A program made the position numbers and the translations under genes. Below are positions 6,377-59,922 of a stretch of 64,000 nt of DNA, in pieces (the first letter of the stretch is position 1; every line of letters begins with the position of its first letter). Below the pieces are notes generated by a model, which saw only the letters and a program-made list of their open reading frames with translations, had not been told where the DNA came from and made no database searches. Source of the DNA: Candidatus Enteromonas sp. (GTDB taxonomy: Bacteria; Bacillota_I; Bacilli_A; RFN20; CAG-826); assembly GCA_034171505.1 (NCBI GenBank), contig JAXFGC010000027.1, forward strand, positions 15,745 through 79,744, given 5' to 3'.

Positions 6377-6451
6377 GCTTCTAATTATCAAATCCCTTGA
6401 AAGGGAAGTAAAGGTGTTGCCAAGCTTAATAGACTCGCGTTTCCTTTGAAA

Positions 6452-20169: not shown

Positions 20170-20820
20170 ATGAAGAAATTCGATGTGATTTCGAAGCTCG
20201 TTGATTGTGGCGTTGTCGCCGTCATTCGCGCCAATTCGGTGGAAGAAGCGAGCAAACTCAGCCACGCCGTTGCCGAAGGAGGCATCTTAGGCTTGGAGGT
20301 GACCTTCACCGTTCCTGGAGCGGAAAAAGTGATCGCTGCCCTCTGCGAAGAGCTTGGGGATTCCGCGATTGTCGGGGCGGGAACCGTTCTCGATGCCCCG
20401 ACCGCCCGCACCGCCATTCTCGCCGGGGCCAAGTTTGTCGTCTCCCCTGGCTTTGACAAAGAGACCGCGGAACTCTGCAACGTCTACCAAGTCCCCTATA
20501 TGGCGGGATGTTTCACCATCACCGAGATCATCACCGCGATGAAAGCCGGCGTGGATATTTTGAAAATCTTCCCCGGATCCTCGGCCACCCCCGAATACTT
20601 CAAAGCGGTCCACGGACCTCTTCCCCAAGCAAACTTGATGCCAACCGGAGGCGTCTCGTTGGAGAACGCGAAAGACTGGATTAAGTCCGGCGCGGTCGCT
20701 ATCGGAACCGGTGGACAACTCACCGCCCCCGCAAAGAAAGGGGATTACGCGGGAGTTACCAAAATCGCCGCAGAATTCGTCCGCCTTGTCAAAGAAGCGC
20801 GTGATGAAATGAAGAAATAA
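20170..20820 (+). CDS. eda: 2-dehydro-3-deoxyphosphogluconate (KDPG) aldolase
   Basis: ...GVVAVIRANSVEEA...GLEVTFTVPGA...ILKIFPG... is the class I KDPG/KHG aldolase pattern. Confidence 0.88.
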   Translation: MKKFDVISKLVDCGVVAVIRANSVEEASKLSHAVAEGGILGLEVTFTVPGAEKVIAALCEELGDSAIVGAGTVLDAPTARTAILAGAKFVVSPGFDKETAELCNVYQVPYMAGCFTITEIITAMKAGVDILKIFPGSSATPEYFKAVHGPLPQANLMPTGGVSLENAKDWIKSGAVAIGTGGQLTAPAKKGDYAGVTKIAAEFVRLVKEARDEMKK

Positions 20821-20832
20821 GGAGAAATTTCC

Positions 20833-21849
20833 ATGATTTACGCAACTCTTGGAGAAATCATGCTTCGTTTGTCGACCCCCGGCAACGAACGCTTTGTTCA
20901 ATCCACTTCCTTCGACATCAACTACGGTGGAGGTGAGGCCAACGTCGCCCTTTCCCTTTGCAATTTGGGAGAAGAAGCCCGCTTCCTTTCCAAGATTCCA
21001 AACAACGATATCGGACAAGCCGCGATCAATTCCCTCCGTCAATTTGGCGTTGACACCTCGGGGATTGTCCGTGGGGGAGATCGCCTTGGTATTTACTTCT
21101 TGGAAACCGGCGCCTCCGTCCGTCCTTCCAAAGTGATTTACGACCGCGCCCACAGCGCCATTTGCGAGGCCAAACCGAGCGAATTCAACTTCCGTAAACT
21201 TCTCAAAGGAGTTTCTTGGCTCCATATCACCGGCATTACCCCGGCCCTTGGGAAGAACTGCCAGGCCATCACTTTGAAAGCCCTCCAAGCCGCCAAAGCC
21301 ATGGGTATCACGGTTTCCTTCGACCTCAATTACCGCGCCAAACTTTGGACCAAAGAAGAGGCCCAATCCGTCATGATCCCCTTCATGGAATACGTCGATT
21401 ACGTCATCGGCAATGAAGAAGACGCGGAAGCTTGCCTTGGCTTCTCCGCGGGAGGAGACGTCTCCAAAGGGAAGCTCGACGCTCAAGGGTATGGAAATAT
21501 GCTCCGCGCGATGTGCGAGAAGTTCCACCTCCGTGGAGCCGCTGCCTCGCTTCGGGAATCCCACAGCGCCTCCGACAATGGTTGGAGCGGGGTTCTTTAC
21601 ACGAATGGCAAGGCGTATGTCTCTGCCCATTACGACCTTCGCATCGTTGACCGCGTTGGGGGAGGAGATTCCTTCGCCGCGGGTCTCATCTATGGCTTGA
21701 CCCATTACGAAGATTCCCAAAAGGCCATTGATTGCGCCGTCGCTCACAGCGCTTTGAAACACACCATCCCCGGGGATTTCAACCACGTTGGCATCAAAGA
21801 AGTTGAATCCTTGATGGCCGGCAACACCAACGGACGCGTCCAACGGTAA
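20833..21849 (+). CDS. kdgK: 2-dehydro-3-deoxygluconokinase (PfkB family)
   Basis: ...FDINYGGGEANVA... and C-terminal ...VDRVGGGDSFAAGLIYG (PfkB signature 2). Sits between eda and a GntR regulator gene. Confidence 0.88.
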   Translation: MIYATLGEIMLRLSTPGNERFVQSTSFDINYGGGEANVALSLCNLGEEARFLSKIPNNDIGQAAINSLRQFGVDTSGIVRGGDRLGIYFLETGASVRPSKVIYDRAHSAICEAKPSEFNFRKLLKGVSWLHITGITPALGKNCQAITLKALQAAKAMGITVSFDLNYRAKLWTKEEAQSVMIPFMEYVDYVIGNEEDAEACLGFSAGGDVSKGKLDAQGYGNMLRAMCEKFHLRGAAASLRESHSASDNGWSGVLYTNGKAYVSAHYDLRIVDRVGGGDSFAAGLIYGLTHYEDSQKAIDCAVAHSALKHTIPGDFNHVGIKEVESLMAGNTNGRVQR

Positions 21850-23085: not shown

Positions 23086-25847
23086 TTGACATCACCAAGG
23101 TTTATCCAGTCAAAGACAATCCCGTTTACGCGTTAAAAGGGATTTCTTTGAACTTCCGTAAAAACGAATTCGTCTCTATCCTTGGCCCTTCGGGATGCGG
23201 AAAGACCACGACCCTCAACATCATCGGAGGGCTCGACCATTACACGGACGGGGACCTCATCATCAATGGGGTTTCCACCAAACGTTACGACGACCACGAT
23301 TGGGACGTTTACCGCAACCATAAGATTGGCTTCATTTTCCAATCCTACAATTTGATTCCCCACGAGAATATTTTGGAGAACGTGGAACTCGCCCTTACCA
23401 TCGCGGGATTAGGGAAAGAAGAACGGACCCGTCGGGCAAAAGAGGCTCTCGATAACGTCGGCTTGAAAGGGATGTACTACAAGCATCCGAACCAACTTTC
23501 GGGTGGCCAATGTCAACGTGTCGCGATTGCCCGCGCCCTCGTCAACGAACCCGACATCCTTTTGGCGGACGAACCCACGGGTGCCCTCGACTCCCAAACC
23601 TCCATCCAAATCATGGATTTGGTCAAGAAAATCTCGAAAGAGAAGCTCGTCATCATGGTCACTCATAATCCGGATTTGGCCCAAAAATACTCGACCCGTA
23701 TCATCGAATTGCTCGATGGGGAGGTCAAAAGCGACTCCAACCCCTATAGCGTAGAAGAGGAAGAAGCGGAACGGGTAACCCCCCAAGCAACCATAGTGGA
23801 CGAAAAGGCCAAGATGAGTTGGTGGACCGCTTTCAAACTCTCCGCGAAAAACCTCTGGTCGAAGATTCGTCGCACCTCTTTGATCGTCGTGGCTAGTTCC
23901 ATCGGCATTGTCGGTGTCTCCGCGGTTTTGGCCGTCTCCCAAGGGGTGCGCGGCTATATCGTGGACATGCAGGATGACATGCTTTCGGGTAACCCGATTG
24001 AAGTCGCCGAAAGCGGACTTAGCCTCACTTCCTTGATGAACGCCGCCGGCAGCATGGGCCAAACCGAAGCGGTGATTCACTCGGTCAAAGACGGCAAAAT
24101 CGACATCCAATTCTTGATGGAAGCCTTGATCAAGACCTCCGATACCCTCGATGGGGCGATGGTCAGCAACACGATCACTCCGGAATACGAAGCCTTCATC
24201 GATGACATGCCGAGCGATTATTACGCCGCCCTTGCCAAGGATTATGGCGTCAACGTGAAGAACAACATCTACACCGATTGCGAAATGGACATCAAGAACT
24301 GGGACCCCGACAACCGGTATTCCATTTCCTGCATCACGACCGTCTGCTCCAACATCCTCGAAGTCATGGAGGATGGCAAGTACAAAGATTATTCCCCGAT
24401 GGTGGACCAATACACGAACACGATTGGCCAATGCCTCGACAACAAGGAATACGTCTTGGAACAATACGATGTCCTCGAAGGGCATTACCCGACCGAGGAA
24501 AACGAGATGATGCTCGTTTTGAATTCGAAGAAAACCGTCCCCGAATTCGTCCTCACGTTGTTGGGCTTCTATTCCCAAGAAGAATTCGCGAACGCCGCCT
24601 ACCACTTCTCCCATTCGGATAAATTCGATCCGGACCTTTGGGAAACTCAGCAGTCGATTACCTTCGATGAAATCTTGAATAAGAAGTACTATTACTACCC
24701 CAACAATACCATCTATGAGAAGAACCCCGCCTATGGGGGAAGCGCTACGGAAGACGATACCTGCTACCAACCCTATTTCTATTCTTACCAAGAAGATCCG
24801 TCTTGGGACGAAGGAATGGAACTCCGGATTGTCGGCATCCTCGCTCCAAAGGAAACCACTTTCTATGGATGCATGTCCGCTGGACTTTATTACACCCCGA
24901 AACTCGCCGACCGCATGATGGCGGATAACGCCCAAAGCGATGTCACCCGCTTTGTTCGGAACTTTGAGGAAGATAATGGCAACAACGGCTACTCTTCGAT
25001 GATTATCAAACAAACGGTCAGTTCCTTAAGCGTCCGCATGATCAGCGGCTTTGGGTACCGATTCAATTTCTTCTTTGAGGATGACCCCTATGTTGGTTAT
25101 GGAGTCGTCGGCTCCCAAAACGGGCTCTCGAGTTTCCTCGCAAGCATGGGAGGAGGGTCTTCCGGGGGTAGCGGCGGTTCCTCTAGCGGCAGCGGTTTAT
25201 CCATCGAAAAGACCGCAACCATCACCACTCGAGATTTGGGCGGAGCCACTACCCCGGCAAACATCTATATCTACCCCAAAAACTTTGATACCAAGTATAT
25301 GGTCACCGATTATCTTTCCCAATGGGGCAAAGGAGACATCACATTAAGCGATGGAACGGTCATCAGAATCGAAGACCAAACCGAGATCGATTACACGGAT
25401 AATCTCGAAGTCGTCATCACGATGATCAACGGGGTCATCGACATCGTCACCATCGCCCTCGTTTGCTTCACCGCCCTCAGTTTGGTGGTCTCCACGGTCA
25501 TGATTGGTATCATCACCTATGTTTCGGTCATGGAACGCGTCAAGGAAATCGGTGTTATCCGAAGCCTTGGCGGACGAAAGAAAGACGTCTCCCACCTCTT
25601 TAACGCCGAAACCTTCATGATCGGCGCCGCGAGCGGTTTATTCGGCTTGGCGATAACCTATCTCTTCGAGCTCATCTTGAACTTGACCATTGGACGCACG
25701 TTTAACCTCGGAATGATCGCGAACCTCAACTGGTATACCGCGATTATCGTCTTCCTGATTTCCATCTTGCTCACCATGGTCGCGGGCTTGATTCCGTCCC
25801 TTGCCGCGGCCAAACAAGACCCGGTCAACGCCCTTCGTAGCGAGTAA
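23073..25847 (+). CDS. Fused ABC ATPase + FtsX/MacB-type permease with very large extracytoplasmic domain
   Basis: Walker A GPSGCGKTT, signature LSGGQCQRVAIARAL, Walker B ILLADEPTGALD. One TM helix at about residue 270, then about 500 aa of extracytoplasmic region containing GGGSSGGSGGSSSGSG, then a C-terminal FtsX-type TM bundle. Overlaps marR by 13 nt. Confidence 0.88.
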   Translation: MLRLVDITKVYPVKDNPVYALKGISLNFRKNEFVSILGPSGCGKTTTLNIIGGLDHYTDGDLIINGVSTKRYDDHDWDVYRNHKIGFIFQSYNLIPHENILENVELALTIAGLGKEERTRRAKEALDNVGLKGMYYKHPNQLSGGQCQRVAIARALVNEPDILLADEPTGALDSQTSIQIMDLVKKISKEKLVIMVTHNPDLAQKYSTRIIELLDGEVKSDSNPYSVEEEEAERVTPQATIVDEKAKMSWWTAFKLSAKNLWSKIRRTSLIVVASSIGIVGVSAVLAVSQGVRGYIVDMQDDMLSGNPIEVAESGLSLTSLMNAAGSMGQTEAVIHSVKDGKIDIQFLMEALIKTSDTLDGAMVSNTITPEYEAFIDDMPSDYYAALAKDYGVNVKNNIYTDCEMDIKNWDPDNRYSISCITTVCSNILEVMEDGKYKDYSPMVDQYTNTIGQCLDNKEYVLEQYDVLEGHYPTEENEMMLVLNSKKTVPEFVLTLLGFYSQEEFANAAYHFSHSDKFDPDLWETQQSITFDEILNKKYYYYPNNTIYEKNPAYGGSATEDDTCYQPYFYSYQEDPSWDEGMELRIVGILAPKETTFYGCMSAGLYYTPKLADRMMADNAQSDVTRFVRNFEEDNGNNGYSSMIIKQTVSSLSVRMISGFGYRFNFFFEDDPYVGYGVVGSQNGLSSFLASMGGGSSGGSGGSSSGSGLSIEKTATITTRDLGGATTPANIYIYPKNFDTKYMVTDYLSQWGKGDITLSDGTVIRIEDQTEIDYTDNLEVVITMINGVIDIVTIALVCFTALSLVVSTVMIGIITYVSVMERVKEIGVIRSLGGRKKDVSHLFNAETFMIGAASGLFGLAITYLFELILNLTIGRTFNLGMIANLNWYTAIIVFLISILLTMVAGLIPSLAAAKQDPVNALRSE

Positions 25848-25863
25848 AAGAAAGGACCCATGT

Positions 25864-26424
25864 ATGCATAAACCCATTAAAACCGCTCCTTACGTCTATC
25901 CCTTACCGGTGGCGATCCTCCTCACTTACAATGCGGACGGAACGCCAAATGCGATGACGGCCGCCTGGGCGGTCCCCGTCGATAGTGATATCCTCGCGGT
26001 CTGCTTAAGCCCCGAACATAAGACCAACGCGAATTTCCACCGCGACCCCCACGTCACGGTTTCCTTTGCAACCAAGTCCACGATGGCGGAAGCTGCGTAT
26101 TTTGGCACTTGCAGCGGAAACGACGTCCCGAACAAAGTCGCCGCGACTTCGCTTCACGACCTTAAGCTCGCCGCTTCCCCGGTGATGGAAGAGTTCCCCG
26201 TCGCGATTCTCTGCCTCTTCGACCATGAAGACGAATCCACGGGCATGAACTACTTCAAAATCGAGAAGGTCCTCGCGGATGAAAAGACGTTGGGCGAAAA
26301 CGGACGCGTGGACCTCGTGGAGGCGGAAGCCATCGTCTATGATTCGTTCCACCGCGCTTATCGCGAGGTTGGGAAGGAACTTGGCGACGCTTATTCGATG
26401 GGCGAAAAGTTCGTAAACGAATAG
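25864..26424 (+). CDS. Flavin reductase-like (FMN-binding split-barrel) protein
   Basis: ...YPLPVAILLTYNADGTPNAMTAAWAVPVDSD...VCLSPEHKTNANF resembles the flavoredoxin/flavin-reductase domain. Start chosen at ATG 25864. Confidence 0.7.
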   Translation: MHKPIKTAPYVYPLPVAILLTYNADGTPNAMTAAWAVPVDSDILAVCLSPEHKTNANFHRDPHVTVSFATKSTMAEAAYFGTCSGNDVPNKVAATSLHDLKLAASPVMEEFPVAILCLFDHEDESTGMNYFKIEKVLADEKTLGENGRVDLVEAEAIVYDSFHRAYREVGKELGDAYSMGEKFVNE

Positions 26425-26441: not shown

Positions 26442-26457
26442 GGGACTGGCTCCATTA

Positions 26458-26484
26458 AGTGCCTTCTTCGGAGGGCGCTTTTGC
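26458..26484 (+). terminator. Intrinsic terminator (UUCG tetraloop hairpin)
   Basis: agtgccttc-ttcg-gagggcgct followed by tttt. Confidence 0.7.
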
Positions 26485-26526: not shown

Positions 26527-27936
26527 ATGTCCGAAGCCTCGATTTCTAAGCGTTCCCCTCTGAGTCAAAAGACGTATTTCCTGAAGTTTTTGTTTTTGCT
26601 TGGGGCGATCGGCTGGGGGATCATGCTGATCTTCATTTTGATCCATAAACTCGTCATCGAGAATATTCCCGAGATTCCGTTGCAGGTGGCGACTACTTTA
26701 TTCACGGGCAAGTTCGTTTTTGGGGACTTTTTGGAGACGATGGCCTTTTGCTTCATGGAGAATCCTTATTTGGATGTGCCATGTGGCAGGACCATCTATT
26801 TCCCGATTTCCTATCTGATCATTTATCCCTTTGCCCTGCTTGGGAAAGACGCCGCGATGGCGTATTTGGCCAATCCCGAGCTGCTCGCGACCCCCGAGCG
26901 GTTGCCTGGATTATTGCCCGCGTATTTGCTTTACGCGTTCGTTTGCATCGCTTTGATTCTCTTAGTTAGTGCGTATTTGTCTCACCTCAAAGGCTGGGAT
27001 TTGTTTTACCTAATGGGTGGAATATTGCTACATGGGTCGATTTCTTTTGCTTTGGGGAGGGGAAATACCATCTTCGTGACTTTCCTTGGCATTCTCCTTT
27101 TCTTTGGGCTTTACCATCACAAGAAGTGGTGGCTGCGGGAACTCGGTTACGTTTGTTTCGCCCTTGCGATTTCCATCAAGGTTTATCCCGTCCTTTTGGC
27201 AATGGTTTTCTTCCGGGAACGTCGTTACTTCCCCTTGCTCCGTACCGCGATTTATACCTTGGTTTTCCTTTTTGCGCCGTTTTTCTTCGTTCCCGGGGGA
27301 CTTTCCAACGTTGGCCGATTGCTCCAAAACATGAGTGCTTTCTCCGTGGACTCGGACCGTTTCTTGGTGTTTACCAACATCTCTTGGGCGGGGTTGCTCG
27401 GAAAAGTCCAATTCGTCCTCGATTTCCTCCCATATCTAGCCTCTCCTGAAGCGTTGATGGGGCACGTTTTGGAAATGATCCAACAGAACGCCTTCCTCTT
27501 TACGATCGGGAGGTCGACCTTGGTAATTTCTCAAGTGCTTGGACTTGCTTGTTGCGTATTGACCCTCGTGTTCTCTTTCTTCCAACCGAAGAAGGGGTCT
27601 GCTTTCCCTTACATGACCTTGCTAATCATGAATTTCTTCGCTTTCCCCTCCGTCCATTTCTGTTACGTCCATTTGCTTTTTGTCCTTTTGACGATCGTCT
27701 ACCTCCACGAGATGGAGAACATGAATCTCCAACAAAAAGTCATCTACGGGATGTGCCTCCTTTTCGCGGCCTTCCCCTTCCAATATTTCTACCAAATTCC
27801 GCTTCTATCGAGCTTTGCCCAGGGTATTTTGCTCGTCTTCTCCATTATTGACCTCATCCATCTTTACCTCCGAAAGACCCCCGCTTGTAAGGAAGCGGTA
27901 TCTTCCCCTGAGACCTCAACGGAAAGAAGCGTATAA
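26527..27936 (+). CDS. Polytopic (>10 TM) membrane protein, candidate GT-C-fold glycosyltransferase or polymerase-like enzyme
   Basis: 469 aa, almost entirely hydrophobic helices with short loops. It lies immediately upstream of a polyprenyl-phosphate glycosyltransferase gene. The CDS is confident. The function is inferred from topology and context only. Confidence 0.6.
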   Translation: MSEASISKRSPLSQKTYFLKFLFLLGAIGWGIMLIFILIHKLVIENIPEIPLQVATTLFTGKFVFGDFLETMAFCFMENPYLDVPCGRTIYFPISYLIIYPFALLGKDAAMAYLANPELLATPERLPGLLPAYLLYAFVCIALILLVSAYLSHLKGWDLFYLMGGILLHGSISFALGRGNTIFVTFLGILLFFGLYHHKKWWLRELGYVCFALAISIKVYPVLLAMVFFRERRYFPLLRTAIYTLVFLFAPFFFVPGGLSNVGRLLQNMSAFSVDSDRFLVFTNISWAGLLGKVQFVLDFLPYLASPEALMGHVLEMIQQNAFLFTIGRSTLVISQVLGLACCVLTLVFSFFQPKKGSAFPYMTLLIMNFFAFPSVHFCYVHLLFVLLTIVYLHEMENMNLQQKVIYGMCLLFAAFPFQYFYQIPLLSSFAQGILLVFSIIDLIHLYLRKTPACKEAVSSPETSTERSV

Positions 27937-27945
27937 TAAAGCGGT

Positions 27946-28893
27946 ATGCCGAAACAAAAGAAAACCCTGACGATCGTCATCCCTTGTTACAACGAGGTCG
28001 ATAACGTCGTCCCCTTAAGTGAAGAAATCCAGAAAGTCTGTAAGGAAAAACTTCCCAAGTATAACCTCGAAATCCTTTTCATCGACAACGACTCCCACGA
28101 TGGAACGCGGGATAAGATTCGCTTGTTATGCGAGAAGGACCCCTCCATCAAAGCCATCTTTAACGCGAAGAATTTCGGCCACATCCGTTCCCCTTATTAC
28201 GGCTTAACTCAGGCCAAAGGGGATTTGGTGATGCTCATGTGCGCCGACTTCCAAGACCCTCCCGAACTCATTCCTGAATTCGTTGCCAAATACGAAGAAG
28301 GGTACCGCGTGGTCGTCGGGGTCAAGGAAAAGAGCAAAACGAATCCGTTCGTGAATTCCATTCGGAAACTCTATTACCGGATCATCCACCGGGTTTCCGA
28401 TGTGGAACAAATTGAAAATTTCACCGGATTCGGGCTTTACGACCAAGGCTTCATCCAAGTTCTCGCCAAACTCGATGACCCTTATCCCTATATGCGGGGA
28501 ATCGTGGCCGAACTCGGATATAAGATGACCCTTCTCCCTTACGTCCAACCCGAACGTCGATTTGGGAAAACCCATAATAATTTTTCCACCCTTTACGACA
28601 TGGCGATGAACGGGATTACCTCCTATTCAAAGTTCTTTTTGCGCGCCGCGACGTTTGTCGGGGTGGGATTCGTTCTCGCGGGATTCTTGCTCCTCATCCC
28701 TTATATCGTTTTCTTAATCCTCCAATGGAACGGAGTCCATCCGAGCATTTTCTATCCGATTCTCGATGCTATTTTCATCGTCGGAGGCATCATTCTTTTC
28801 TTCCTTGGAATCCTTGGGGAATATGTCCTCCAAATCAACACGAGGGTCCTAAAACGCCCCTTCGTGATCGAAGAAGAACGCATCAACTTCTGA
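27946..28893 (+). CDS. GT2 polyprenyl-phosphate glycosyltransferase (GtrB/CsbB/DPM1-like) with two C-terminal TM helices
   Basis: LTIVIPCYNEVDNVVPL...ILFIDNDSHDGT...LMCADFQDPPELIPEF... plus a C-terminal TM pair (FVGVGFVLAGFLLLIPYIVFL / ILDAIFIVGGIILFFLGILGEY). Confidence 0.85.
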   Translation: MPKQKKTLTIVIPCYNEVDNVVPLSEEIQKVCKEKLPKYNLEILFIDNDSHDGTRDKIRLLCEKDPSIKAIFNAKNFGHIRSPYYGLTQAKGDLVMLMCADFQDPPELIPEFVAKYEEGYRVVVGVKEKSKTNPFVNSIRKLYYRIIHRVSDVEQIENFTGFGLYDQGFIQVLAKLDDPYPYMRGIVAELGYKMTLLPYVQPERRFGKTHNNFSTLYDMAMNGITSYSKFFLRAATFVGVGFVLAGFLLLIPYIVFLILQWNGVHPSIFYPILDAIFIVGGIILFFLGILGEYVLQINTRVLKRPFVIEEERINF

Positions 28894-28976
28894 CCCCTTT
28901 TGCGTACACGCGTGTTCCGCGACATGGGGAAACTAGTATATAATGATTTACGAATCGTAAAGGGCGAGACTTTCTT

Positions 28977-30305
28977 ATGGCCAACCGAGAGAAAATTCAT
29001 CAAGACATCATCGAGTATTTCCAAGAGGAATACCGAAGCAAACCTTATCAAAAAGGCGACCGCATCCGTTATGCGGGGCGCGTATTTGACGAAAGGGAAT
29101 TGATTGCCGGCGTTGATAGCGTCCTTGATTTTTGGCTGACCTCCGGCAAATACTGCGCCAAACTCGAAAAGGAACTCGCCGAGTATATCGGTGTCCATAG
29201 CGCTTTCTTGACCACTTCAGGGTCGAGCGCCAACCTCCTTGCCTTCATGGCCTTGACCTCCTCTTCTTTGGGGGAACGGAGAATCTGCAGGGGAGATGAA
29301 GTCATCACGGTCGCCGCGGGATTCCCGACGACCGTCTCCCCGATGCTTAATTTCGGGGCGGTCCCCGTATTCGTGGACGTCACCATTCCCGAATACAACA
29401 TCGACGTGAGTAAACTCGAAGAGGCCCTATCCCCCAAAACGAAGGCGGTTATGATCGCCCATACCTTGGGAAATCCCTTTGACCTAAAAGCCGTCAAAGC
29501 CTTCTGCGATAAACACCACCTTTGGTTAATCGAAGACAATTGCGATGCGCTCGGAAGCGAATTCACGATCGATGGGGTCACCAAAAAGACCGGTGCGTGG
29601 GGCGATATCGGCACCGCATCGTTTTATCCCGCCCACCACATGACCATGGGCGAAGGAGGGGCGGTATTCACCAACAACCCCTTCTTGGCCAAGACGATCT
29701 TGGCGTTCCGTGATTGGGGCAGAGACTACTCTTGCCCACCGGGGGTGGATAATTCCTGCGGCCATCGTTTCTCCGGACAATACGGGGAATTGCCTTATGG
29801 CTATGACCATAAATACGTTTACAGCGAATTCGGATACAACCTCAAAGTCACGGAGATGCAAGCCGCGATTGGTCTAGAACAACTCCATAAAGTCCCAGGG
29901 TTCGTGGAAGCGAGAAAGAAAAACTGGAAGCGTTTGACCGAGCTCTTAAGCGACCTCCAAGATCGTTTGATTTTGCCTCGCCCCACCCCTGGAAGCGACC
30001 CAAGTTGGTTTGGCTATGTCATTACCTGCAAAGAAGGGGTGAGCCGAAACGCCCTTACGACGTTCTTGGAGAAGCGCCTCATTCAAACCCGAAACCTTTT
30101 CGCGGGGAACTTGCTCCGCCACCCTTGCTTTGACGAAATGCGGGAAAGCGGCGCGGGGTACCGCGTCGTTGGGGACCTCAAGAATACCGACACCATCATG
30201 AATTCCACGTTCTGGATTGGCGTTTATCCCGGCATGAGCGATGAAATGCTTTGCGATATGTCGGAAGCCATCCACGATTTCTTTGCCAAGGAGGATCGTC
30301 AATGA
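28977..30305 (+). CDS. rfbH: CDP-4-keto-6-deoxy-D-glucose 3-dehydrase-like protein (RfbH/DdhC family, DegT superfamily)
   Basis: ...RYAGRVFDERELIAGVDSVLDFWLTSGKYCAKLEKELAEYIGVHSAFLTTSGSSANLLAF... and ...GYNLKVTEMQAAIGLEQL. The RfbH-type N-terminus and 442-aa length fit. Sits next to rfbF and rfbG. Confidence 0.8.
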   Translation: MANREKIHQDIIEYFQEEYRSKPYQKGDRIRYAGRVFDERELIAGVDSVLDFWLTSGKYCAKLEKELAEYIGVHSAFLTTSGSSANLLAFMALTSSSLGERRICRGDEVITVAAGFPTTVSPMLNFGAVPVFVDVTIPEYNIDVSKLEEALSPKTKAVMIAHTLGNPFDLKAVKAFCDKHHLWLIEDNCDALGSEFTIDGVTKKTGAWGDIGTASFYPAHHMTMGEGGAVFTNNPFLAKTILAFRDWGRDYSCPPGVDNSCGHRFSGQYGELPYGYDHKYVYSEFGYNLKVTEMQAAIGLEQLHKVPGFVEARKKNWKRLTELLSDLQDRLILPRPTPGSDPSWFGYVITCKEGVSRNALTTFLEKRLIQTRNLFAGNLLRHPCFDEMRESGAGYRVVGDLKNTDTIMNSTFWIGVYPGMSDEMLCDMSEAIHDFFAKEDRQ

Positions 30306-31081
30306 AAGTATTGATTCTCGCGGGAGGCTATGGGACCCGCATTTCCGAAGAAAGCCAATACAAACCCAAGCCCATGATCGAAATCGGGGGAATGCCGATT
30401 CTTTGGCACATCATGAAGACCTACTCCAAATATGGATTCAACGAATTCGTCATTCTCGGGGGATACCGTCAATACATCATTAAGGAATACTTCAAGAACT
30501 ATTTCTTGCACCATTCCGACGTCACTTTTGACATGACCTGCGACCAAATCACCATCCATAAGCAATACGCCGAACCATGGAAAGTCACCGTTCTCGACAC
30601 CGGGCTAAACACCATGACCGGAGGGCGAATCAAACGGGCGAAGGATTACATCGGGGATGAAACCTTTATGTTAACTTATGGGGATGGTTTGGCGGACGTG
30701 AACCTTCAAAAGCTCCTGGAATTCCATCAAAAAGGCCATTGTTTTTGCACGTTGACGGCCGTGTCGCTTGCTTCCACCAAAGGGGTGTTGGACCTCTCAA
30801 AGGATGGAACGGTTTCCTCCTTCCGCGAGAAGGACCACGATGAAGACGGGGCGATCATCAACGGAGGCTTCATGGTCTGCGAACCCGAGGTCCTTGATTT
30901 CATCGATGGGGATTCCACCGCGTTTGAAAAGAAACCTTTGTCCGACCTTGCCCACCAAGGCCAACTCAAAGCCTACCTCCACAAAGGGTTCTGGCATTGT
31001 ATGGACACCAAACGCGACCACGATGAACTCGAAGAACTTTGGAGAACGGGCAACGCCCCGTGGAAGGTTTGGGATGATTGA
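30302..31081 (+). CDS. rfbF: Glucose-1-phosphate cytidylyltransferase
   Basis: MKVLILAGGYGTRISEESQYKPKPMIEIGGMPILWHIMKTYSKYGFNEFVILGGY is the canonical RfbF/DdhA N-terminus. ATGA overlap with rfbH. Confidence 0.92.
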   Translation: MKVLILAGGYGTRISEESQYKPKPMIEIGGMPILWHIMKTYSKYGFNEFVILGGYRQYIIKEYFKNYFLHHSDVTFDMTCDQITIHKQYAEPWKVTVLDTGLNTMTGGRIKRAKDYIGDETFMLTYGDGLADVNLQKLLEFHQKGHCFCTLTAVSLASTKGVLDLSKDGTVSSFREKDHDEDGAIINGGFMVCEPEVLDFIDGDSTAFEKKPLSDLAHQGQLKAYLHKGFWHCMDTKRDHDELEELWRTGNAPWKVWDD

Positions 31082-32141
31082 TTTTTCGTTGCGCGCCTAC
31101 CGTGGGAAACGGGTCCTCATCACCGGCCATAGCGGATTTAAGGGTTCCTGGCTATCCGAAATCCTCCTTCTTTCGGGAGCGGAGGTTTTGGGCTACTCGC
31201 TAAATCCCCCCACCGACCCCTCCTTATTTGAACTTTTGGGGCTCGAAAAACGGATGAAATCGGTGATCGCTGATATCCGCGACTACGATTCTTTGAAGAA
31301 AACGTTCGACGAGTTCCAACCCGAGTTTGTCTTTCATTTGGCCGCCCAACCGATTGTTCGAGCCTCCTACCGCGAACCTTTGTATACCTATGAAACCAAC
31401 GTCATGGGGACTGCGAATCTCCTCGAATGCGTCCGTTTGACCCCAAGTGTTCGAAGCGTGGTCAACATCACGACCGACAAAGTCTATTTCAATCCGGATA
31501 TCCCCGGGCACGCGTTTATGGAAGACGAACCTTTGGACGGGTATGACCCCTATTCCAATTCCAAGTCCTGCTCCGAATTGGTTACCCATAGTTACAAACG
31601 TTCGTTTTTCGACCCCATCTTGCTCCCGGTGTCCACCTGTCGCGCGGGAAACGTCATCGGGGGAGGGGACTTCGCGGAAGACCGCATCATTCCCGACGCG
31701 GTTCGCGCGATTCAGAAAGGACTTTCGATTGAAGTTCGAAACCCCCATTCCACCCGTCCCTTCCAACATGTTTTGGAACCTCTCTTCGTCTATCTCCTTT
31801 TGGCCGTTGCCCAGGAAAAAGATTTCTCTTTCGCGGGATATTACAACGTTGGACCTGAGGAAGAGGATTGCCTATCTACAGGTGAATTGATGGACCGATT
31901 CTGCGAAATCTATGGGGAGGGAGCCTCTTGGATCACCCATCGTCAAGACGGACCCCATGAAGCGAATTTCCTGCGTTTGTCCACGGATAAAGTGAAACGC
32001 GTCTTCGGGTGGAAACCCCGCACCCATATCGACGAAGCCTTGATGATGGTCGCCGAATGGACCAAAGTCTATCTCGCTGGGGACACAGAAGCCCTAAAGA
32101 GAATAACCGATGAACAGATCCGGAGGTTCTTCGGTGAGTGA
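31074..32141 (+). CDS. rfbG: CDP-glucose 4,6-dehydratase
   Basis: ...GKRVLITGHSGFKGSWLSEILLLSGAEVLGYSL... and the YSNSK catalytic YxxxK. Start at ATG 31074 overlaps the rfbF stop by 8 nt. Confidence 0.9.
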   Translation: MIDFSLRAYRGKRVLITGHSGFKGSWLSEILLLSGAEVLGYSLNPPTDPSLFELLGLEKRMKSVIADIRDYDSLKKTFDEFQPEFVFHLAAQPIVRASYREPLYTYETNVMGTANLLECVRLTPSVRSVVNITTDKVYFNPDIPGHAFMEDEPLDGYDPYSNSKSCSELVTHSYKRSFFDPILLPVSTCRAGNVIGGGDFAEDRIIPDAVRAIQKGLSIEVRNPHSTRPFQHVLEPLFVYLLLAVAQEKDFSFAGYYNVGPEEEDCLSTGELMDRFCEIYGEGASWITHRQDGPHEANFLRLSTDKVKRVFGWKPRTHIDEALMMVAEWTKVYLAGDTEALKRITDEQIRRFFGE

Positions 32142-33039
32142 AGAAGTTCTCTTGACCGGTTGTACGGGAATCGTGGGGCGGAGCATCGTTCGTTCCCTTT
32201 TGGATAAAGGCTACTTTGTGACCGCCTATCTTTTGGACATCCCTTCCACCGATGCGTTCCATCAAGATTTCAAAGAAGTGAGAATCGTTCGGGGAACCTT
32301 GGATGAAATCGATCTCCATAAGGCGGAACTTGGACACCCCACCGCCGTATTTCACCTCGCTTGGGCAGGAACGACATCAACCGACCGAATGGACGAAACC
32401 CTTCAAGAGAAGAACTACCACTGGTCCATGAAAACATTGGATGTGGCGGTTTCTCTGGGAGCGAAAACCTTCCTGTTCTCGGGTTCTCAAGCGGAATACG
32501 GGAGGGTTGGAGATACCCAAGAGGAAATCGAAGATGGACCCGCGGAACCTTTCTCTGCCTACGGCAAGGAAAAGAAACATTTTGGGGAAGACGGGCAGGC
32601 TTATTCATCGCTTCATGGTATCCGTTTTGTCCATGGGCGCATCTTCTCCGTTTACGGTCCCCACGACCGCCCGAACAGCTTGATTTCTTCTCTTGCGGAA
32701 GCGGAAAGAAACGGTAAGAAGGTGATGCTTGGGCCTTGCACCCATTTATGGAACTTTACCCACGAAGACGATATCGGGGAGCTTTTTGTTGAAGCGTTAG
32801 AAAACGGAAATGCCGAAGGAATCATCAACATGGTTTCCCCGGATACCCGTCCTTTAAAGGATTTTGTCGTTTCTTCTTTTGGTGAAAAAAGTTATGAATT
32901 TGGAACGGTGAATCCGAACCCCGAAGGTTTGGTTTGCCTTCGCCCTTCCCTAACGAAAGTGAAGCGTTTGTTTCCGCTTCATCGTTTTCGGAGGTTCGAA
33001 GAGGAAATCGCGAAGATGAAAAAGGAGAAGATCCAATGA
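32110..33039 (+). CDS. NAD(P)-dependent SDR (epimerase/reductase family), candidate sugar 4-keto or branch-carbonyl reductase
   Basis: Rossmann motif LLTGCTGIVGRSIV and YGKEK (YxxxK). A GTG at 32134 is an alternative start. ATGA overlap with the next gene. Confidence 0.8.
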   Translation: MNRSGGSSVSEEVLLTGCTGIVGRSIVRSLLDKGYFVTAYLLDIPSTDAFHQDFKEVRIVRGTLDEIDLHKAELGHPTAVFHLAWAGTTSTDRMDETLQEKNYHWSMKTLDVAVSLGAKTFLFSGSQAEYGRVGDTQEEIEDGPAEPFSAYGKEKKHFGEDGQAYSSLHGIRFVHGRIFSVYGPHDRPNSLISSLAEAERNGKKVMLGPCTHLWNFTHEDDIGELFVEALENGNAEGIINMVSPDTRPLKDFVVSSFGEKSYEFGTVNPNPEGLVCLRPSLTKVKRLFPLHRFRRFEEEIAKMKKEKIQ

Positions 33040-34859
33040 AAGTTCGCGTCGCGGATTATATTGCCTCCGCCTGTGAAAAGGCGGGGATACGTACGGCGTT
33101 TTCGGTCGTCGGAGGGGGTGCGATGCACCTCAACGACGCCTTTGGCCATCATCCTGGAATCGAAGTGGTCTATCCCCATCACGAGCAAACCTGCGCGATT
33201 GCAGCGGAAGGCTATGCCCGCGTGAATAACGAAATGGCCGCGGTGGTTGTGACCACGGGCCCAGGGGGGACGAACGCCTTAACCGGTGTGGTCGGGGCCT
33301 ATGTCGACTCCGTCCCTATGGTTGTGATTTCCGGACAAGTCCGTCGCGATTCATTTTCCCTAACAACCGGACTTCCTCTCCGGGCGATGGGGGACCAAGA
33401 ATACAATATCATCCCTTCGGTCAAACCGATGACGAAATACGCGGAATGCATCCTAAAAGAAGAAGATGTCCGTTATATCGTGGAGAAAGCTCTTTATCTC
33501 GCCAACCACGGCCGAAAAGGGCCCACCTGGATTGATGTCCCCGGGGATGTCCAAAGCGCGTATATCGATCCGGAAACCCTGCGCGGTTACGACCCGAAGG
33601 AAGACGAACTCGCTTTGGGCGTAACCGAAAAGGAACTCGAGACTTTGTTTGCGAAGATGAAAAAGGCGAAACGTCCTGTCATCTACGCGGGAAGCGCGAT
33701 TCGTTTAAGCGGGGGTTACGCGGTTTTCCGTCGTTTGATTGATGTCTTGGGCATTCCTGTTGTCACCGCCTGGAACAGCACCGACGTGATACCGAACGAT
33801 CATCCTCTTTACGCCGGAAGAGCGGGAAATTTCGGCGATCGATTTGGAAACTTCGCGGTTCAAAACGCGGACTTCATCCTCTCTCTTGGTTGCCGCCTTT
33901 CCATTCGCCAAACCGGGTTCAACTATGCCTCTTGGGCAAGAGAAGCCTATGTGGCGATGGTCGACATCGATGAAGCAGAGATGAAGAAACCCACTATCCA
34001 CGTGGAACTTCCCCTTCATGACGATGTGAAGCATTTCATGGAGACGTTCCTTTCCTTTTTGCAAGGCAAAGAGCTTCCGAGTTACGCCCGTTACGTCAAA
34101 CGTTGCCAAAAATGGAAGAAAGACTATCCCGTCATTTCCAAAGAACAACGAAGCCAAACGGGGATTTGCAATGCCTACGCGGTGATGGAGATGCTCTCCG
34201 AACACGTCAAAGAGGGGACTTTGGTGGTCTCCGGGAACGGCACCGCCTGCGTAGTCGGAGGACAGGTTTTCACCACGAAAGAAGGCACCCGTTTCATCGA
34301 GAACAGCGGGATGGCGTCCATGGGTTATGACCTGCCTGCCGCGATTGGGGCAAGCCTTGCCGCAGGACGGAGAGAAGTCCTTTTGTTAACCGGAGACGGT
34401 TCCATCCAAATGAACCTCCAAGAACTCCAAACGATCGTGGGTCAGAACCTGCCCATTAAGATCGTCATCTTCAACAACGATGGATACCATTCGATTCGCC
34501 AAAGCCAATCCAATTTTTTCAAGGATCGCAAGATGGTGGGAATCGGTCCGGAATCCAAGGATTTGACCTTCCCCGACATGTCTCGCATCGCTTGGGCGTA
34601 CCGCATTCCTTATTACCGCATCCAAACCAATCGGGGGATGAAACGTTTCTTGAAGGAACAATACGATTCCATCGACTCCTATGCGATTATCGAAGTCATG
34701 ACCGACACGGTCCAATTCTTCGAACCGAAAGCGGGCTCGATGCGGCTATCCGATGGCAAGATGGTTTCCGCGCCTCTAGAAGACCTTAAGCCTTATCTAG
34801 AACGAGAGGAACTCGAAAAAGAGATGATCATCCCTTTGTTTGACGGGAAAGAAAAATGA
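33036..34859 (+). CDS. Thiamine-diphosphate-dependent enzyme of the acetolactate-synthase superfamily, YerE-like candidate
   Basis: 607 aa. N-terminal Pyr domain ...AFSVVGGGAMHLNDAF...HEQTCAIAAEGYAR...TTGPGGTNALTGV. C-terminal ThDP motif GDGSIQMNLQELQTIVGQNLPIKIVIFNNDGY (GDG...NN). RBS aaaggag. Confidence 0.8.
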   Translation: MKVRVADYIASACEKAGIRTAFSVVGGGAMHLNDAFGHHPGIEVVYPHHEQTCAIAAEGYARVNNEMAAVVVTTGPGGTNALTGVVGAYVDSVPMVVISGQVRRDSFSLTTGLPLRAMGDQEYNIIPSVKPMTKYAECILKEEDVRYIVEKALYLANHGRKGPTWIDVPGDVQSAYIDPETLRGYDPKEDELALGVTEKELETLFAKMKKAKRPVIYAGSAIRLSGGYAVFRRLIDVLGIPVVTAWNSTDVIPNDHPLYAGRAGNFGDRFGNFAVQNADFILSLGCRLSIRQTGFNYASWAREAYVAMVDIDEAEMKKPTIHVELPLHDDVKHFMETFLSFLQGKELPSYARYVKRCQKWKKDYPVISKEQRSQTGICNAYAVMEMLSEHVKEGTLVVSGNGTACVVGGQVFTTKEGTRFIENSGMASMGYDLPAAIGASLAAGRREVLLLTGDGSIQMNLQELQTIVGQNLPIKIVIFNNDGYHSIRQSQSNFFKDRKMVGIGPESKDLTFPDMSRIAWAYRIPYYRIQTNRGMKRFLKEQYDSIDSYAIIEVMTDTVQFFEPKAGSMRLSDGKMVSAPLEDLKPYLEREELEKEMIIPLFDGKEK

Positions 34860-36124
34860 AAGAAGCGGCGAAAGGATTGTCGAAAGACATTTTCTGGCAT
34901 ACGGTAGGCACGTTCGCCTATATGATCGCCCTTTGGGTGATTTCCATTCTTTCCGCGAAGTTGCTCGATTACGAATCCGCGGGGGTATTTTCCCTGTGTT
35001 TGGTCGCCTCCAACATCGCGATGTCTTTTGGCAGTTTCTATGTCCGCGTCTTTTATGCGGGGGACATCAATCATCTTTATAGCGATGCGGATTATTGGTT
35101 TTCCCGGGTTTTTACGAGCGCCGCAAGCCTGCTTGTCGCGGTGGTTTATTCCTTGGGCATGAAATATCCTCCCGATGTTTTCTGGGCGATATTCCTTTTC
35201 TATATCTATAAGATTTTTGAACTTTTCACCGAGATCCATTCGGGGGCGTTCCAACGTCATGGGAAGATGTATCTCTCGGGGATTTTGAACACCGTCAAAG
35301 GGGTGGCATCCCTTGGGGGATTTGTCCTTGGAGCGGTTCTCACCCATACCTTAATCGGAGGATTCGCCTTCATGATTGGGGTGGGATTATTGGTTTTCAT
35401 TGCCGAACTCATCCTCTTAAAATCTTCGGTGAACGTCACCTTCTCCTTGCGTGATTTTTCCATTCAACGCGTGGGGAAATTGCTCCTTCATTGCCTACCG
35501 TTCTTCGTTGTTTTGCTTTGTTCCAACGTTTTACCGTCGATCCCCAAAGCGATGTTTGAAAAGATGTATACGACCACCGAATACGGGTACTACTCTTCCA
35601 TCGCGACCATCTCGGTTCTCATCCAGACCGCGGCGGGATCGATTCTCCTTCCCGTGCTTCCGCGGATTGGGAAAGCTTACGCGGAAAAGAACTTGAAGGG
35701 GTTCTTGCTTTCCTGCGGAGGTTTGGTGGGATTCACGGTTGTTTTGGGGCTCGTCGCCTTCGTCCTTGTTTTGTTCCTTGGGGATTGGGCCTTAAGTCTT
35801 GTCTTCGACCCTTCGATTCTTCAATATTCCTCGACCTTCAAATTCACGATTATCGCGGGGACGGCGACGGGTTTGTTCGTGGTCCTAAACCAAATCCTTA
35901 TCGCGATGAACGACAAGTTCGGGGTGATTCTCGGAAGCGTGCTCGGCACCTTAACTTGTTTTGGGGTCTCGCGTTTCTTTATCCAACGTTACTACATGGA
36001 TGGGGTCTCTTTCTCCCTAATTCTATCCGTCATGGTGGAAGTGGTCATCTTCGTTTTCTTTCTAGTGATCGATTGGAAAAAAGCATTGCATTCTCCTTCT
36101 TGCAATAATGACGTAAAGGAATAA
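34856..36124 (+). CDS. MOP/Wzx-type polysaccharide (lipid-linked sugar) flippase
   Basis: 422 aa with about 12 TM helices and a Wzx-like N-terminus. ATGA overlap with the ThDP enzyme gene. Confidence 0.75.
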   Translation: MKEAAKGLSKDIFWHTVGTFAYMIALWVISILSAKLLDYESAGVFSLCLVASNIAMSFGSFYVRVFYAGDINHLYSDADYWFSRVFTSAASLLVAVVYSLGMKYPPDVFWAIFLFYIYKIFELFTEIHSGAFQRHGKMYLSGILNTVKGVASLGGFVLGAVLTHTLIGGFAFMIGVGLLVFIAELILLKSSVNVTFSLRDFSIQRVGKLLLHCLPFFVVLLCSNVLPSIPKAMFEKMYTTTEYGYYSSIATISVLIQTAAGSILLPVLPRIGKAYAEKNLKGFLLSCGGLVGFTVVLGLVAFVLVLFLGDWALSLVFDPSILQYSSTFKFTIIAGTATGLFVVLNQILIAMNDKFGVILGSVLGTLTCFGVSRFFIQRYYMDGVSFSLILSVMVEVVIFVFFLVIDWKKALHSPSCNNDVKE

Positions 36125-36134
36125 GATTTCTCCC

Positions 36135-36644
36135 ATGAAAAAGAAACTCGACGAAGTCACGAAAGTGAAATTGATTTATTCCGGGGAACTCCTCGTATTC
36201 TCGGTGGTGTTCTTGGTCCTGGGGATTTTGTTTTTGCTCGGGATCATCACGGTTGCCGACTGGAAACGTTGGGCGTTTGCCATCCTCACCTGCGGAGGCG
36301 GAGCCTATTTCATCGGCGATTTCATTTGGTGTTTGGTTTCGAAAAAGCATCGCGCGAAGGTTTCGATGCTCGACAAAGCCTTGGTCCTTCCGATGGCCAT
36401 CCCCGTCTTTGTCTTCGATATCCTCTCCTTCGTTTTTGGCTGGGTCAGCAACGAAGAAGGCATCACCTACTTCCGTTATGCCTTAGGAATCAGTTTGCTT
36501 TATTATGCGGCGGTTTATCTCTTCCAAGCTTTTTATCACTGGAAACATCCGATTCCAGGGCTCCTCGAAGGGCTGGATGAAGAAGAACCCATCTCCCCTT
36601 TGGAAGAACCCGTGCCTCCCGAAGAAGATAATCCGAATGAATGA
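36135..36644 (+). CDS. Small 4-TM membrane protein with acidic Pro/Glu C-terminal tail, unknown function
   Basis: Last gene of the glycan operon, followed by a clean terminator. No family recognised. Confidence 0.65.
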   Translation: MKKKLDEVTKVKLIYSGELLVFSVVFLVLGILFLLGIITVADWKRWAFAILTCGGGAYFIGDFIWCLVSKKHRAKVSMLDKALVLPMAIPVFVFDILSFVFGWVSNEEGITYFRYALGISLLYYAAVYLFQAFYHWKHPIPGLLEGLDEEEPISPLEEPVPPEEDNPNE

Positions 36645-51025: not shown

Positions 51026-51305
51026 GAAAAAGGAAATTCGGATCCTCTCCGAACAAACCGCGACCATCACCCGTCAAAAGGAATTGCTCCAAGAAGAAAA
51101 TGCCAAGAAGCTTAAAATGGTCGCTTCTTCCCTTCGCCAAGATTACCAAAAGACATTGGATGGGGCGAACGCCTTCCTTCAGGCCCTTTCGAATGAACAG
51201 GTGGCCCTCATGGAACAAATGTCGGATGAGATCCATTCGTTCAACACCAAAAGCAAAGAACTCCGAGACATCTTTCAAGATATGTTAGGAGGCGACCTCG
51301 CATGA
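51018..51305 (+). CDS. 95-aa coiled-coil protein, unknown function
   Basis: The start overlaps the upstream stop (ATGAATAA). The heptad-like sequence is rich in Q/E/K/L. Confidence 0.6.
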   Translation: MNKKKEIRILSEQTATITRQKELLQEENAKKLKMVASSLRQDYQKTLDGANAFLQALSNEQVALMEQMSDEIHSFNTKSKELRDIFQDMLGGDLA

Positions 51306-53188: not shown

Positions 53189-53263
53189 AGAAAAATACAA
53201 TTTTCTTTCGCGATTTACTTTGCACTTTCCGCGCGTGCGTGTACCATAAACTAAACCCTAGGA

Positions 53264-59892: not shown

Positions 59893-59922
59893 AGAGCGAA
59901 CCCATATAGTTGAATTCGCTCT
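59893..59922. terminator. Hairpin between convergent sbcC and the large surface-protein gene (possible bidirectional terminator)
   Basis: agagcgaa (59893-59900) pairs with ttcgctct (59915-59922) and is preceded by aaaaa. It overlaps the stop codon of the minus-strand gene. Confidence 0.5.

Follow-up and report, generated by a model that had tools for sequence, protein, structure and literature searches.

Three-component glycosylation systems are a main source of surface-glycan variation and of escape from phages and the immune system, and the donors that their family 2 glycosyltransferases (GT2) are known to make derive from uridine diphosphate (UDP) or guanosine diphosphate (GDP) sugars. ALG6 and ALG3 use polyprenyl- or dolichyl-monophosphate sugars. 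PimE likewise uses a polyprenyl-monophosphate sugar, with D58 as its catalytic residue and K195 binding phosphate, and the characterised members of family GT87 act on glycolipids and lipoglycans. Here we describe a single compact nine-gene operon on the + strand, at positions 26527-36644 of a 64-kb stretch of DNA from Candidatus Enteromonas sp. (hereafter the window), which is likely to encode a three-component (Gtr/Arn-type) extracytoplasmic glycosylation system that uses a sugar derived from cytidine diphosphate (CDP) precursors, namely a 4-C-branched 3,6-dideoxyhexose of the yersiniose type.

In Mycobacterium marinum the lipooligosaccharide (LOS) genes MMAR_2331-2333 include a GT2, MMAR_2333, which lies beside the YerE-like MMAR_2332 and is required for caryophyllose addition, a step that the published model places outside the membrane, while in M. 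kansasii (MKAN27435) a polyprenyl-linked sugar is the suggested product of a DPM-synthase-like GT2 beside a glucose-1-phosphate cytidylyltransferase. A lipid-linked caryophyllose donor is also said to have been proposed by Sarkar in 2011. Pentofuranose three-component systems, which accept sugars not derived from UDP, combine a flippase of the MATE family, within the multidrug/oligosaccharidyl-lipid/polysaccharide (MOP) superfamily, with a membrane glycosyltransferase of the GT-C fold (Kelly et al. PNAS 2024, PMC11127046), and such precedents for a MOP flippase with a GT-C would, by analogy, support a three-component reading of the present operon. An earlier note on this DNA, made from its sequence alone, knew of no description of the combination; given the caryophyllose route proposed for M. 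marinum LOS and the MOP flippase published in 2024, this claim of novelty was too strong. In the literature that we searched, no three-component system with a CDP-sugar as its supply is described. The route itself is well known, and for this class of sugar it is a proposed one. The elements that appear new are the CDP donor class, the Wzx-type flippase, a GT87-like GT-C in gut commensals of the Bacilli and Clostridia, and a distinctive active-site signature in the GT2.

The earlier note had singled out four genes of this operon, and the corresponding open reading frames (ORFs; 469, 315, 422 and 169 aa) lie where it placed them. The 315-aa protein was described as a GtrB-type GT2 with a C-terminal pair of transmembrane (TM) segments, and full-length alignments bear this out: residues 8-308 align with the solved structure of GtrB (5ekp; E 2.5e-39) and residues 6-307 with ArnC (E ~1e-26), in both cases with the TM helices included, and the C-terminal hydrophobic pair occupies residues 230-265 and 266-297. 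The GT-A domain, juxtamembrane helices and C-terminal TM pair of the GtrB/ArnC architecture are therefore all present. The top NCBIfam models, PgfS (174 bits) and ArnC, both match over their full length, the PgfS score lying far under the equivalog cut-off of 500. In GtrB of Synechocystis, mutagenesis and structural work mark D94, D96, R122, D157 and R200 as important; the aligned residues here are C99, D101, K127, G161 and R204, and the full active-site set (D94-x-D96, R122, D157, R200) is not retained in this alignment. C99 and G161 are nevertheless invariant in a clade of CDP-linked GT2 enzymes from Bacilli and Clostridia (59-91% identity), which has CAD in place of DAD and in which the motifs 'MCADFQDPPE', 'FTGFGLYD' and 'NFGHIRSP' are invariant or nearly so, whereas a gammaproteobacterial relative (L009) retains the canonical 'DCD' and 'GDFRLID'. 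Identity of the GT2 between genomes reaches 91%, which indicates strong constraint and argues that the gene is not decaying, and the changes at C99 and G161 would be compatible with altered donor handling.

Loci for comparison were drawn using three anchors, the GT-C protein, the GT2 and the Wzx-like protein, with a metagenome scan using the GT2 adding one extra locus only. This gave ten GT2-bearing loci with usable flanks (L001/L002, L003, L004, L005, L007, L008, L009, L010, L012 and L013), L006 being too short to judge at 5.6 kb. In all ten, RfbF/G/H genes and/or a YerE-like gene lie no more than 10 kb from the GT2 relative (35-91% identity), and this linkage spans Bacilli, Clostridia and one gammaproteobacterium in several gene orders. 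In a further locus, L011, Wzx-like, GT87 and sugar genes are found together, the GT2 not being within the stretch examined. Recurrence of the cluster in independent genomes shows that its arrangement is not due to chance, and the gene context of the GT2 argues for a CDP-sugar donor rather than UDP-glucose. We propose that this enzyme is the synthase of a polyprenyl-phosphate-linked branched sugar.

The earlier note had assigned the neighbouring genes to a CDP-linked branched or dideoxy hexose, and genes for a CDP-linked branched dideoxyhexose are borne out. RfbF, which has an ATG start with a GGAGG motif, scores 374 bits with its NCBIfam model (curated cut-off 300), RfbG 399 bits (cut-off 278) and RfbH 675 bits (equivalog cut-off 423). 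In RfbH a histidine replaces the lysine that binds pyridoxal phosphate (SFYPAHH), as in the dehydrase type, and Cys189, Cys253 and Cys261 are present. The thiamine diphosphate (ThDP)-dependent enzyme carries the GDG...NN ThDP motif at residue 453 and matches JanthE (PDB 8rph) at 452 bits, as compared to 244 bits for a plant acetohydroxyacid synthase and 215 bits for PpYerE. JanthE is a YerE-like carboligase that accepts ketones, and YerE-like enzymes put acyl branches on CDP-4-keto-3,6-dideoxyglucose. An extended short-chain dehydrogenase/reductase (SDR) gene accompanies the ThDP gene in most loci, and from this context we propose that it either acts on the acyl branch as a YerF-like reductase or is a 4-ketoreductase.

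The first gene of the operon ends 9 nt 5' of the GT2 gene and encodes the 469-aa polytopic protein that the earlier note had called GT-C-like. It matches Pfam GT87 (PF09594) at 24.5 bits, the gathering cut-off being 25, and 38 of its 40 closest full-length relatives match the same family at E<=1e-3 (best E 5.6e-20), as does an ortholog with 48% identity. Searches based on word indexing returned very few relatives and were replaced by an exhaustive search of representative sequences with HMMER, which gave 1251 relatives at E<=1e-3. The AlphaFold model from the 40-relative alignment (pLDDT 88, pTM 0.88) has as its best Foldseek matches in the PDB the structures of PimE, ALG6, PIGU and ALG3, with ArnT and Pmt weaker, and no WaaL- or Wzy-type protein is among the top 50 matches; likewise, the sequence matches none of the Pfam families Wzy_C, O-antigen polymerase and EpsG. 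Its relatives and predicted fold thus place the protein in the GT87 neighbourhood, with a PimE/ALG6/ALG3-like fold, and not with Wzy. D67, Y91, R178, K218 and Y380 are invariant in the 40 sequences, and in the model D67 opens a short helix within the first outside loop. This residue and K218 resemble D58 and K195 of PimE, a putative correspondence based on region and invariance and not on superposition. We propose that this GT-C is an extracytoplasmic transferase using a polyprenyl-phosphate sugar. Distant GT87 relatives (27-30% identity; P0046 and P0153) stand alone beside unrelated genes, which indicates that the GT87 family overall is not tied to this cassette.

For the 422-aa protein, read earlier as a Wzx/MOP flippase, the Pfam Polysacc_synt model is covered almost entirely at 22.6 bits (cut-off 28.2), and four of five homologs match the same model (best E 9e-7). 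A search of solved structures with the sequence gave no match and fold prediction was needed: the model (pLDDT 86) has 12 long helices, as in the 12-TM MOP fold, and superposes best on WzxE (TM-score 0.72-0.76), with MATE and MurJ proteins coming next. Its homologs co-occur with GT2 and CDP-sugar genes, and we propose that it is the flippase for the polyprenyl-phosphate sugar.

The 169-aa gene, which begins 10 nt 3' of the Wzx-like gene, exists as the earlier note had described it, with four hydrophobic segments (two by a strict hydropathy threshold and two by reading of the sequence), but its place among the principal components did not hold, as the window and one close relative, an Enteromonas metagenome-assembled genome (MAG; 79% identity), alone have it and every other locus lacks it. 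It has no Pfam or NCBIfam match even at E<=1. We considered it as a GtrA-like flippase or other core component and rejected this given the lack of a family match and its absence elsewhere; it is instead a lineage-specific accessory. GtrA (PF04138), the classical third component, is matched by no ORF, the 169-aa protein at E<=1 included.

We also examined what the locus lacks. Pfam scans, which covered essentially all ORFs of at least 90 aa in the 64-kb window, detected no priming enzyme (Bac_transf, Glycos_transf_4) and no Wzy, O-antigen ligase or Wzz. The operon itself contains no glycosyltransferase other than the GT2 and the GT-C, and the several Leloir glycosyltransferases of a Wzx/Wzy locus are not found in it, in agreement with the earlier note, according to which priming enzyme, chain-length regulator and further cytoplasmic transferases were all missing. 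Likewise, the flanks of L003, L008 and L010 contain no Pfam match to a priming phosphoglycosyltransferase (PGT), a polymerase or a chain-length regulator. The note had named as its own alternative a Wzy-type polymerase with a priming transferase nearby; the GT87 relatives and PimE-like predicted fold speak against the first part, and for the second the scanned 64-kb window contains no such enzyme. The sole other glycosyltransferases of the window are encoded at 4419-6391, where convergent genes for a GT2 (317 aa, of cytoplasmic type and without a GtrB-like tail) and a GT4 adjoin the genes of a MatE transporter and a GGDEF protein at a distance of 20 kb from the operon; this pair may belong to a separate glycan pathway.

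Comparison with the closest relative, the 'Candidatus Enteromonas sp.' MAG, showed synteny over ~20 kb, flanks included. Here GT-C identity is 48% (L001 10001-11395 against window 26527-27936), while 18 of the 19 syntenic genes have 59-91% identity, among them the GT2 at 91%, RfbH at 88% and the Wzx-like gene at 76%. The GT-C is also the gene of lowest identity in L003 (34%) and L010 (30%), where the GT2 stands at ~80%, and this divergence suggests that the acceptor or linkage specificity of the GT-C is diversifying. The SDR is second lowest in L003 (46%) and L010 (44%), possibly reflecting variation in sugar stereochemistry; in the Enteromonas comparison, a GntR and a MarR gene are lower. An eight-gene core, running from the GT87 gene through the Wzx-like gene, lies between housekeeping genes in three unrelated contexts, these being the window and L001, L003 (an Erysipelotrichaceae MAG), where it sits between HAD hydrolase/GH43/ThrRS genes and ROK/pyruvate kinase genes, and L010 (a metagenome contig), where it follows enolase. 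The core is therefore a portable, self-contained module.

Elsewhere the cassette is rearranged. L005 and L013 share the order Wzx-like, SDR, GT2, unassigned gene, two GT87, RfbF, RfbG, RfbH and ThDP; L012 has ThDP, RfbG and RfbF on one strand, followed by GT87, GT2, Wzx-like and acyltransferase genes; and in L004 the GT2, an unassigned gene, a GT87 and a PMT_2-type GT-C lie by HAD, HMGL-like aldolase and ThDP genes. In L007, a Christensenellaceae MAG, RfbF, RfbG, RfbH, ThDP, SDR and GT2 genes are followed ~3 kb downstream by the Wzx-like gene. L008, from the cultured Christensenella intestinihominis, has RfbF/G/H, a kinase, ThDP, SDR, GT2, Wzx-like and LicD genes and continues with a 2-hydroxyacid dehydrogenase, an IspD-like gene and a 975-aa PMT_2-type GT-C, which replaces the GT87 protein. 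The GT2 of L009 (35% identity) adjoins RfbF, RfbG and RfbH. The GT-C slot is thus occupied by a PMT_2-type protein in Christensenella, and by two GT87 proteins or by GT87 with PMT_2 in other loci. At L008 10975-17702 (strain AF73-05CM02), the LicD gene and the gene for an IspD/TarI-like cytidylyltransferase lie 3' of the GT2 gene, which hints that in this lineage the acceptor is teichoic-acid-like or decorated with phospho-polyols. At L004 15771-19272 and L011 14819-18258, the YerE-like gene has genes for an HMGL-like aldolase and a HAD phosphatase for company; the arrangement recalls the aldolases of erwiniose and caryophyllose clusters and suggests donors with longer, hydroxylated branches, so that the branched sugars may differ among loci and form a family. 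The rearranged cassettes also contain conserved ORFs of 398-595 aa that match no Pfam family (L004 10941-12728, L005 9043-10239 and L011 13060-14826), placed either just behind the GT2 or within the set of sugar genes.

In the route that we propose, RfbF would make CDP-glucose, RfbG would convert this to CDP-4-keto-6-deoxyglucose and RfbH would remove O-3 with electrons supplied by the host, whereupon the YerE/JanthE-like ThDP enzyme would draw on an alpha-keto acid to attach an acyl branch at C-4, which the SDR would reduce. The GtrB-like GT2 would then move the sugar from CDP to undecaprenyl phosphate (Und-P) at the cytoplasmic face, the Wzx-fold MOP protein would flip the resulting polyprenyl-phosphate sugar, and the GT87-like GT-C would put this single sugar onto a pre-existing acceptor outside the membrane, presumably a cell-wall or teichoic-type polymer, a glycolipid or a protein made elsewhere. 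From its gene premises and the comparative genomics, the three-component interpretation of the earlier note is supported, although the following points weigh against this route. The window shows no candidate pathway for an acceptor, and neither the operon nor the window has an FNR- or Fer2-type ORF that could be the E3 reductase (RfbI/AscD/DdhD, a [2Fe-2S] flavoprotein), so 3-deoxygenation by RfbH needs a host electron donor. The GT2 clade has Cys for D94 of the DXD motif and Gly for the functionally essential D157, and with two important GtrB residues absent its chemistry may differ from that of GtrB; it is gene linkage that points to its CDP-sugar donor. Wzx proteins classically flip oligosaccharides linked to undecaprenyl pyrophosphate (Und-PP) rather than monosaccharides linked to Und-P. 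Furthermore, the GT-C and Wzx-like scores both fall just under the Pfam gathering thresholds, and solved structures searched with the GT-C sequence and its 40-sequence profile gave no match, so these two assignments rest on relatives and predicted folds.

We therefore weighed the operon against other explanations. One retains the three components with an ordinary UDP-glucose or UDP-GlcNAc donor and has the CDP-sugar used by an unlinked Leloir glycosyltransferase elsewhere in the genome; the characterised relatives GtrB, CsbB, GacI and ArnC all use UDP-sugars, as has been published for Gtr, and PgfS and ArnC are the best NCBIfam matches of the GT2. However, the operon would then make an activated sugar without a transferase of its own, and the linkage of the GT2 to CDP-sugar genes in ten of ten usable loci despite the shuffling of gene order, the movement of the eight-gene core as one unit between housekeeping flanks, and an invariant non-canonical signature at the nucleotide-sugar site (CAD, not DAD) all run counter to this, and we regard it as unlikely. 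A Wzx/Wzy polysaccharide locus, in which the 469-aa protein would serve as a Wzy-type polymerase or a ligase and the GT2 would act on repeat units, with the primer encoded elsewhere, might be suspected from the Wzx-fold protein, from the frequency with which polytopic proteins of ~450 aa beside Wzx turn out to be Wzy, and from the marginally sub-threshold GT87 score. Against this stand the lack of any Wzy_C, O-antigen polymerase or EpsG match in the GT-C, its GT87 relatives and PimE/ALG6/ALG3-like fold, the full GtrB architecture of the GT2 with its TM hairpin, the presence of one cytoplasmic glycosyltransferase and no PGT or Wzz in the window and three other contexts, and the PMT_2 GT-C that fills the slot in Christensenella, and such a locus is highly improbable.

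The acceptor may also be a protein. In this variant of the three-component route, differing in the acceptor alone, the operon would carry out Pgf/PMT-type O-glycosylation of Ser/Thr-rich regions, for which there is a small chance. PgfS (174 bits), the best NCBIfam match of the GT2, belongs to the Pgf system of protein glycosylation in streptococci, GT-Cs of PMT_2 type occur in the Christensenella and L004 loci, and three-component glycosylation of disordered Ser/Thr-rich regions is documented from streptococci (PMC12041528). Yet the PgfS score is far below the equivalog level, the characterised GT87 enzymes act on lipid-based acceptors as described above, the LicD and IspD-like genes by the Christensenella cluster point to a teichoic-acid-like polymer, and no target protein is encoded nearby.

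If the CDP-fed three-component reading is correct, it would extend the range of donors used by the GtrB/DPM-synthase family, and C-A-D together with loss of the D157 equivalent would become a sequence signature from which a CDP donor could be predicted. It would also explain how clusters for branched dideoxyhexoses are used in the absence of a Leloir transferase, and would amount to the first demonstrated lipid-monophosphate-linked donor of the 4-C-branched 3,6-dideoxyhexose class. Yersiniose-type sugars have so far come mainly from Gram-negative lipopolysaccharide and mycobacterial LOS; health-associated Christensenellaceae and Erysipelotrichaceae-like Bacilli would, on this reading, display them too, offering a tractable parallel to the long-standing and unproven hypothesis of lipid-linked caryophyllose in mycobacteria. 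We lean towards regarding the 'MCADFQDPPE' GT2 clade as a new functional class of CDP-branched-sugar polyprenyl-phosphate transferase that, with a Wzx-type flippase and GT87 or PMT_2 GT-Cs, would form a portable cassette decorating gut commensals, Christensenella among them, with a rare and probably antigenic sugar.

The features of the operon are collected in Table 1. The RfbF and RfbG starts were refined by alignment with homologs; with starts set in this way, each gene either shares 4-8 nt with the next or is followed by a gap of 9-83 nt.

Table 1. Coordinates of the operon genes and of the preceding hairpin within the 64-kb window
Feature	Position	Strand	Remark
Terminator-like hairpin	26457..26480	+	10-pair stem, 5 G-C pairs, then T-rich tail; consensus match only
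GT-C fold membrane glycosyltransferase, GT87/PimE-like, 469 aa	26527..27936	+	
GtrB/ArnC-type polyprenyl-phosphate GT2, 315 aa	27946..28893	+	
RfbH/E1-type CDP-4-keto-6-deoxyglucose 3-dehydrase, 442 aa	28977..30305	+	NCBIfam RfbH equivalog
RfbF glucose-1-phosphate cytidylyltransferase, 259 aa	30302..31081	+	TIGR02623; ORF begins at 30251
RfbG CDP-glucose 4,6-dehydratase, 355 aa	31074..32141	+	TIGR02622; start refined
Extended SDR, ~301 aa	32134..33039	+	Pfam Epimerase E 2e-32
YerE/JanthE-like ThDP-dependent carboligase, 607 aa	33036..34859	+	452 bits to PDB 8rph
Wzx-fold MOP-superfamily protein, 422 aa	34856..36124	+	Fold model; Pfam Polysacc_synt below cut-off
4-TM protein, acidic proline-rich C-terminal tail, 169 aa	36135..36644	+	No family match

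A Flavin_Reduct-domain gene (25864-26424) lies directly 5' of the operon, with the hairpin in between, and this hairpin, 3' of the flavin-reductase-like gene, is the probable 5' limit of the operon. We considered the Flavin_Reduct gene as a surrogate for E3; the syntenic Enteromonas MAG has it with 70% conservation, but it does not adjoin the cassette in L003, L010 or L008, and it was therefore not counted as part of the system. On the other side, the + strand gene for an energy-coupling factor (ECF) S-component begins 265 nt 3' of the operon. An origin from a mobile element or prophage was rejected, as no integrase or phage gene lies nearby and GC content is flat at ~0.50. Elsewhere in the window, 51302-54832 and 59921-63394 hold large ORFs with little or no family assignment, namely a 628-aa membrane-like protein, a 522-aa protein with at least three DUF1508 repeats and a 1157-aa protein without Pfam match. 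Two antisense ORFs, at 20287-21843 (- strand, 518 aa) and 23409-25013 (- strand, 534 aa), overlap well-supported + strand genes (aldolase/PfkB and an ABC-FtsX fusion) and are almost certainly not genes.

Set beside the systems described so far, the GT-C finds its best structural match in PimE, with which it shares a family neighbourhood and, by putative correspondence, an invariant Asp in the first outside loop together with a Lys, whereas identity between the two is 13%, there is no match at the profile level, the hosts here are Bacilli and Clostridia and not mycobacteria, and the predicted donor is not mannose. The pentofuranose systems of Kelly et al. (PMC11127046) share with the operon a lipid-linked monophosphate donor, which is predicted here, a MOP-superfamily flippase and a GT-C; however, their donor is made from phosphoribosyl pyrophosphate (PRPP) by a UbiA-type phosphoribose synthase and not by a GT2 from a nucleotide sugar, and their GT-C founds family GT136 in Gram-negative O-antigen hosts, while that of the operon is GT87-like and from Bacilli. 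From published descriptions, the mycobacterial case can be likened to ours in its YerE-like ThDP enzyme beside a GT2 and in its 4-C-branched 3,6-dideoxyhexose. It is known by genetic inference only, with no GT-C or flippase named in the descriptions we found, and it is an actinobacterial glycolipid pathway within a large polyketide synthase (PKS)/LOS locus, whereas the operon is compact, portable and found in Bacilli and Clostridia. With the yersiniose and erwiniose O-antigen pathways (DdhA-D, YerE and YerF) the operon has in common RfbF/G/H-type enzymes and a YerE-like carboligase, along with a putative reductase. Cytoplasmic Leloir glycosyltransferases of Yersinia and Pectobacterium probably use the CDP-sugar in Wzx/Wzy O-units, and an E3 is encoded there, while the operon has neither a Leloir repeat-unit transferase nor an E3, the GtrB-like enzyme being its sole cytoplasmic glycosyltransferase. 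The Gtr (GtrA/GtrB/GtrC), CsbB/YfhO, GtlA/GtlB and GacI-L systems likewise join a GtrB-type GT2 with a TM hairpin to a variable GT-C, have no priming enzyme, and have in the GT-C their fast-evolving part, which determines specificity and would do so here. Unlike them, the operon carries donor genes for a CDP-branched dideoxyhexose instead of UDP-glucose or UDP-GlcNAc, a Wzx-fold MOP protein in place of a GtrA/GtcA-family flippase, a GT-C that is GT87-like and not of GtrC/YfhO type, and a GT2 with C-A-D and Gly where GtrB has D94 and D157.

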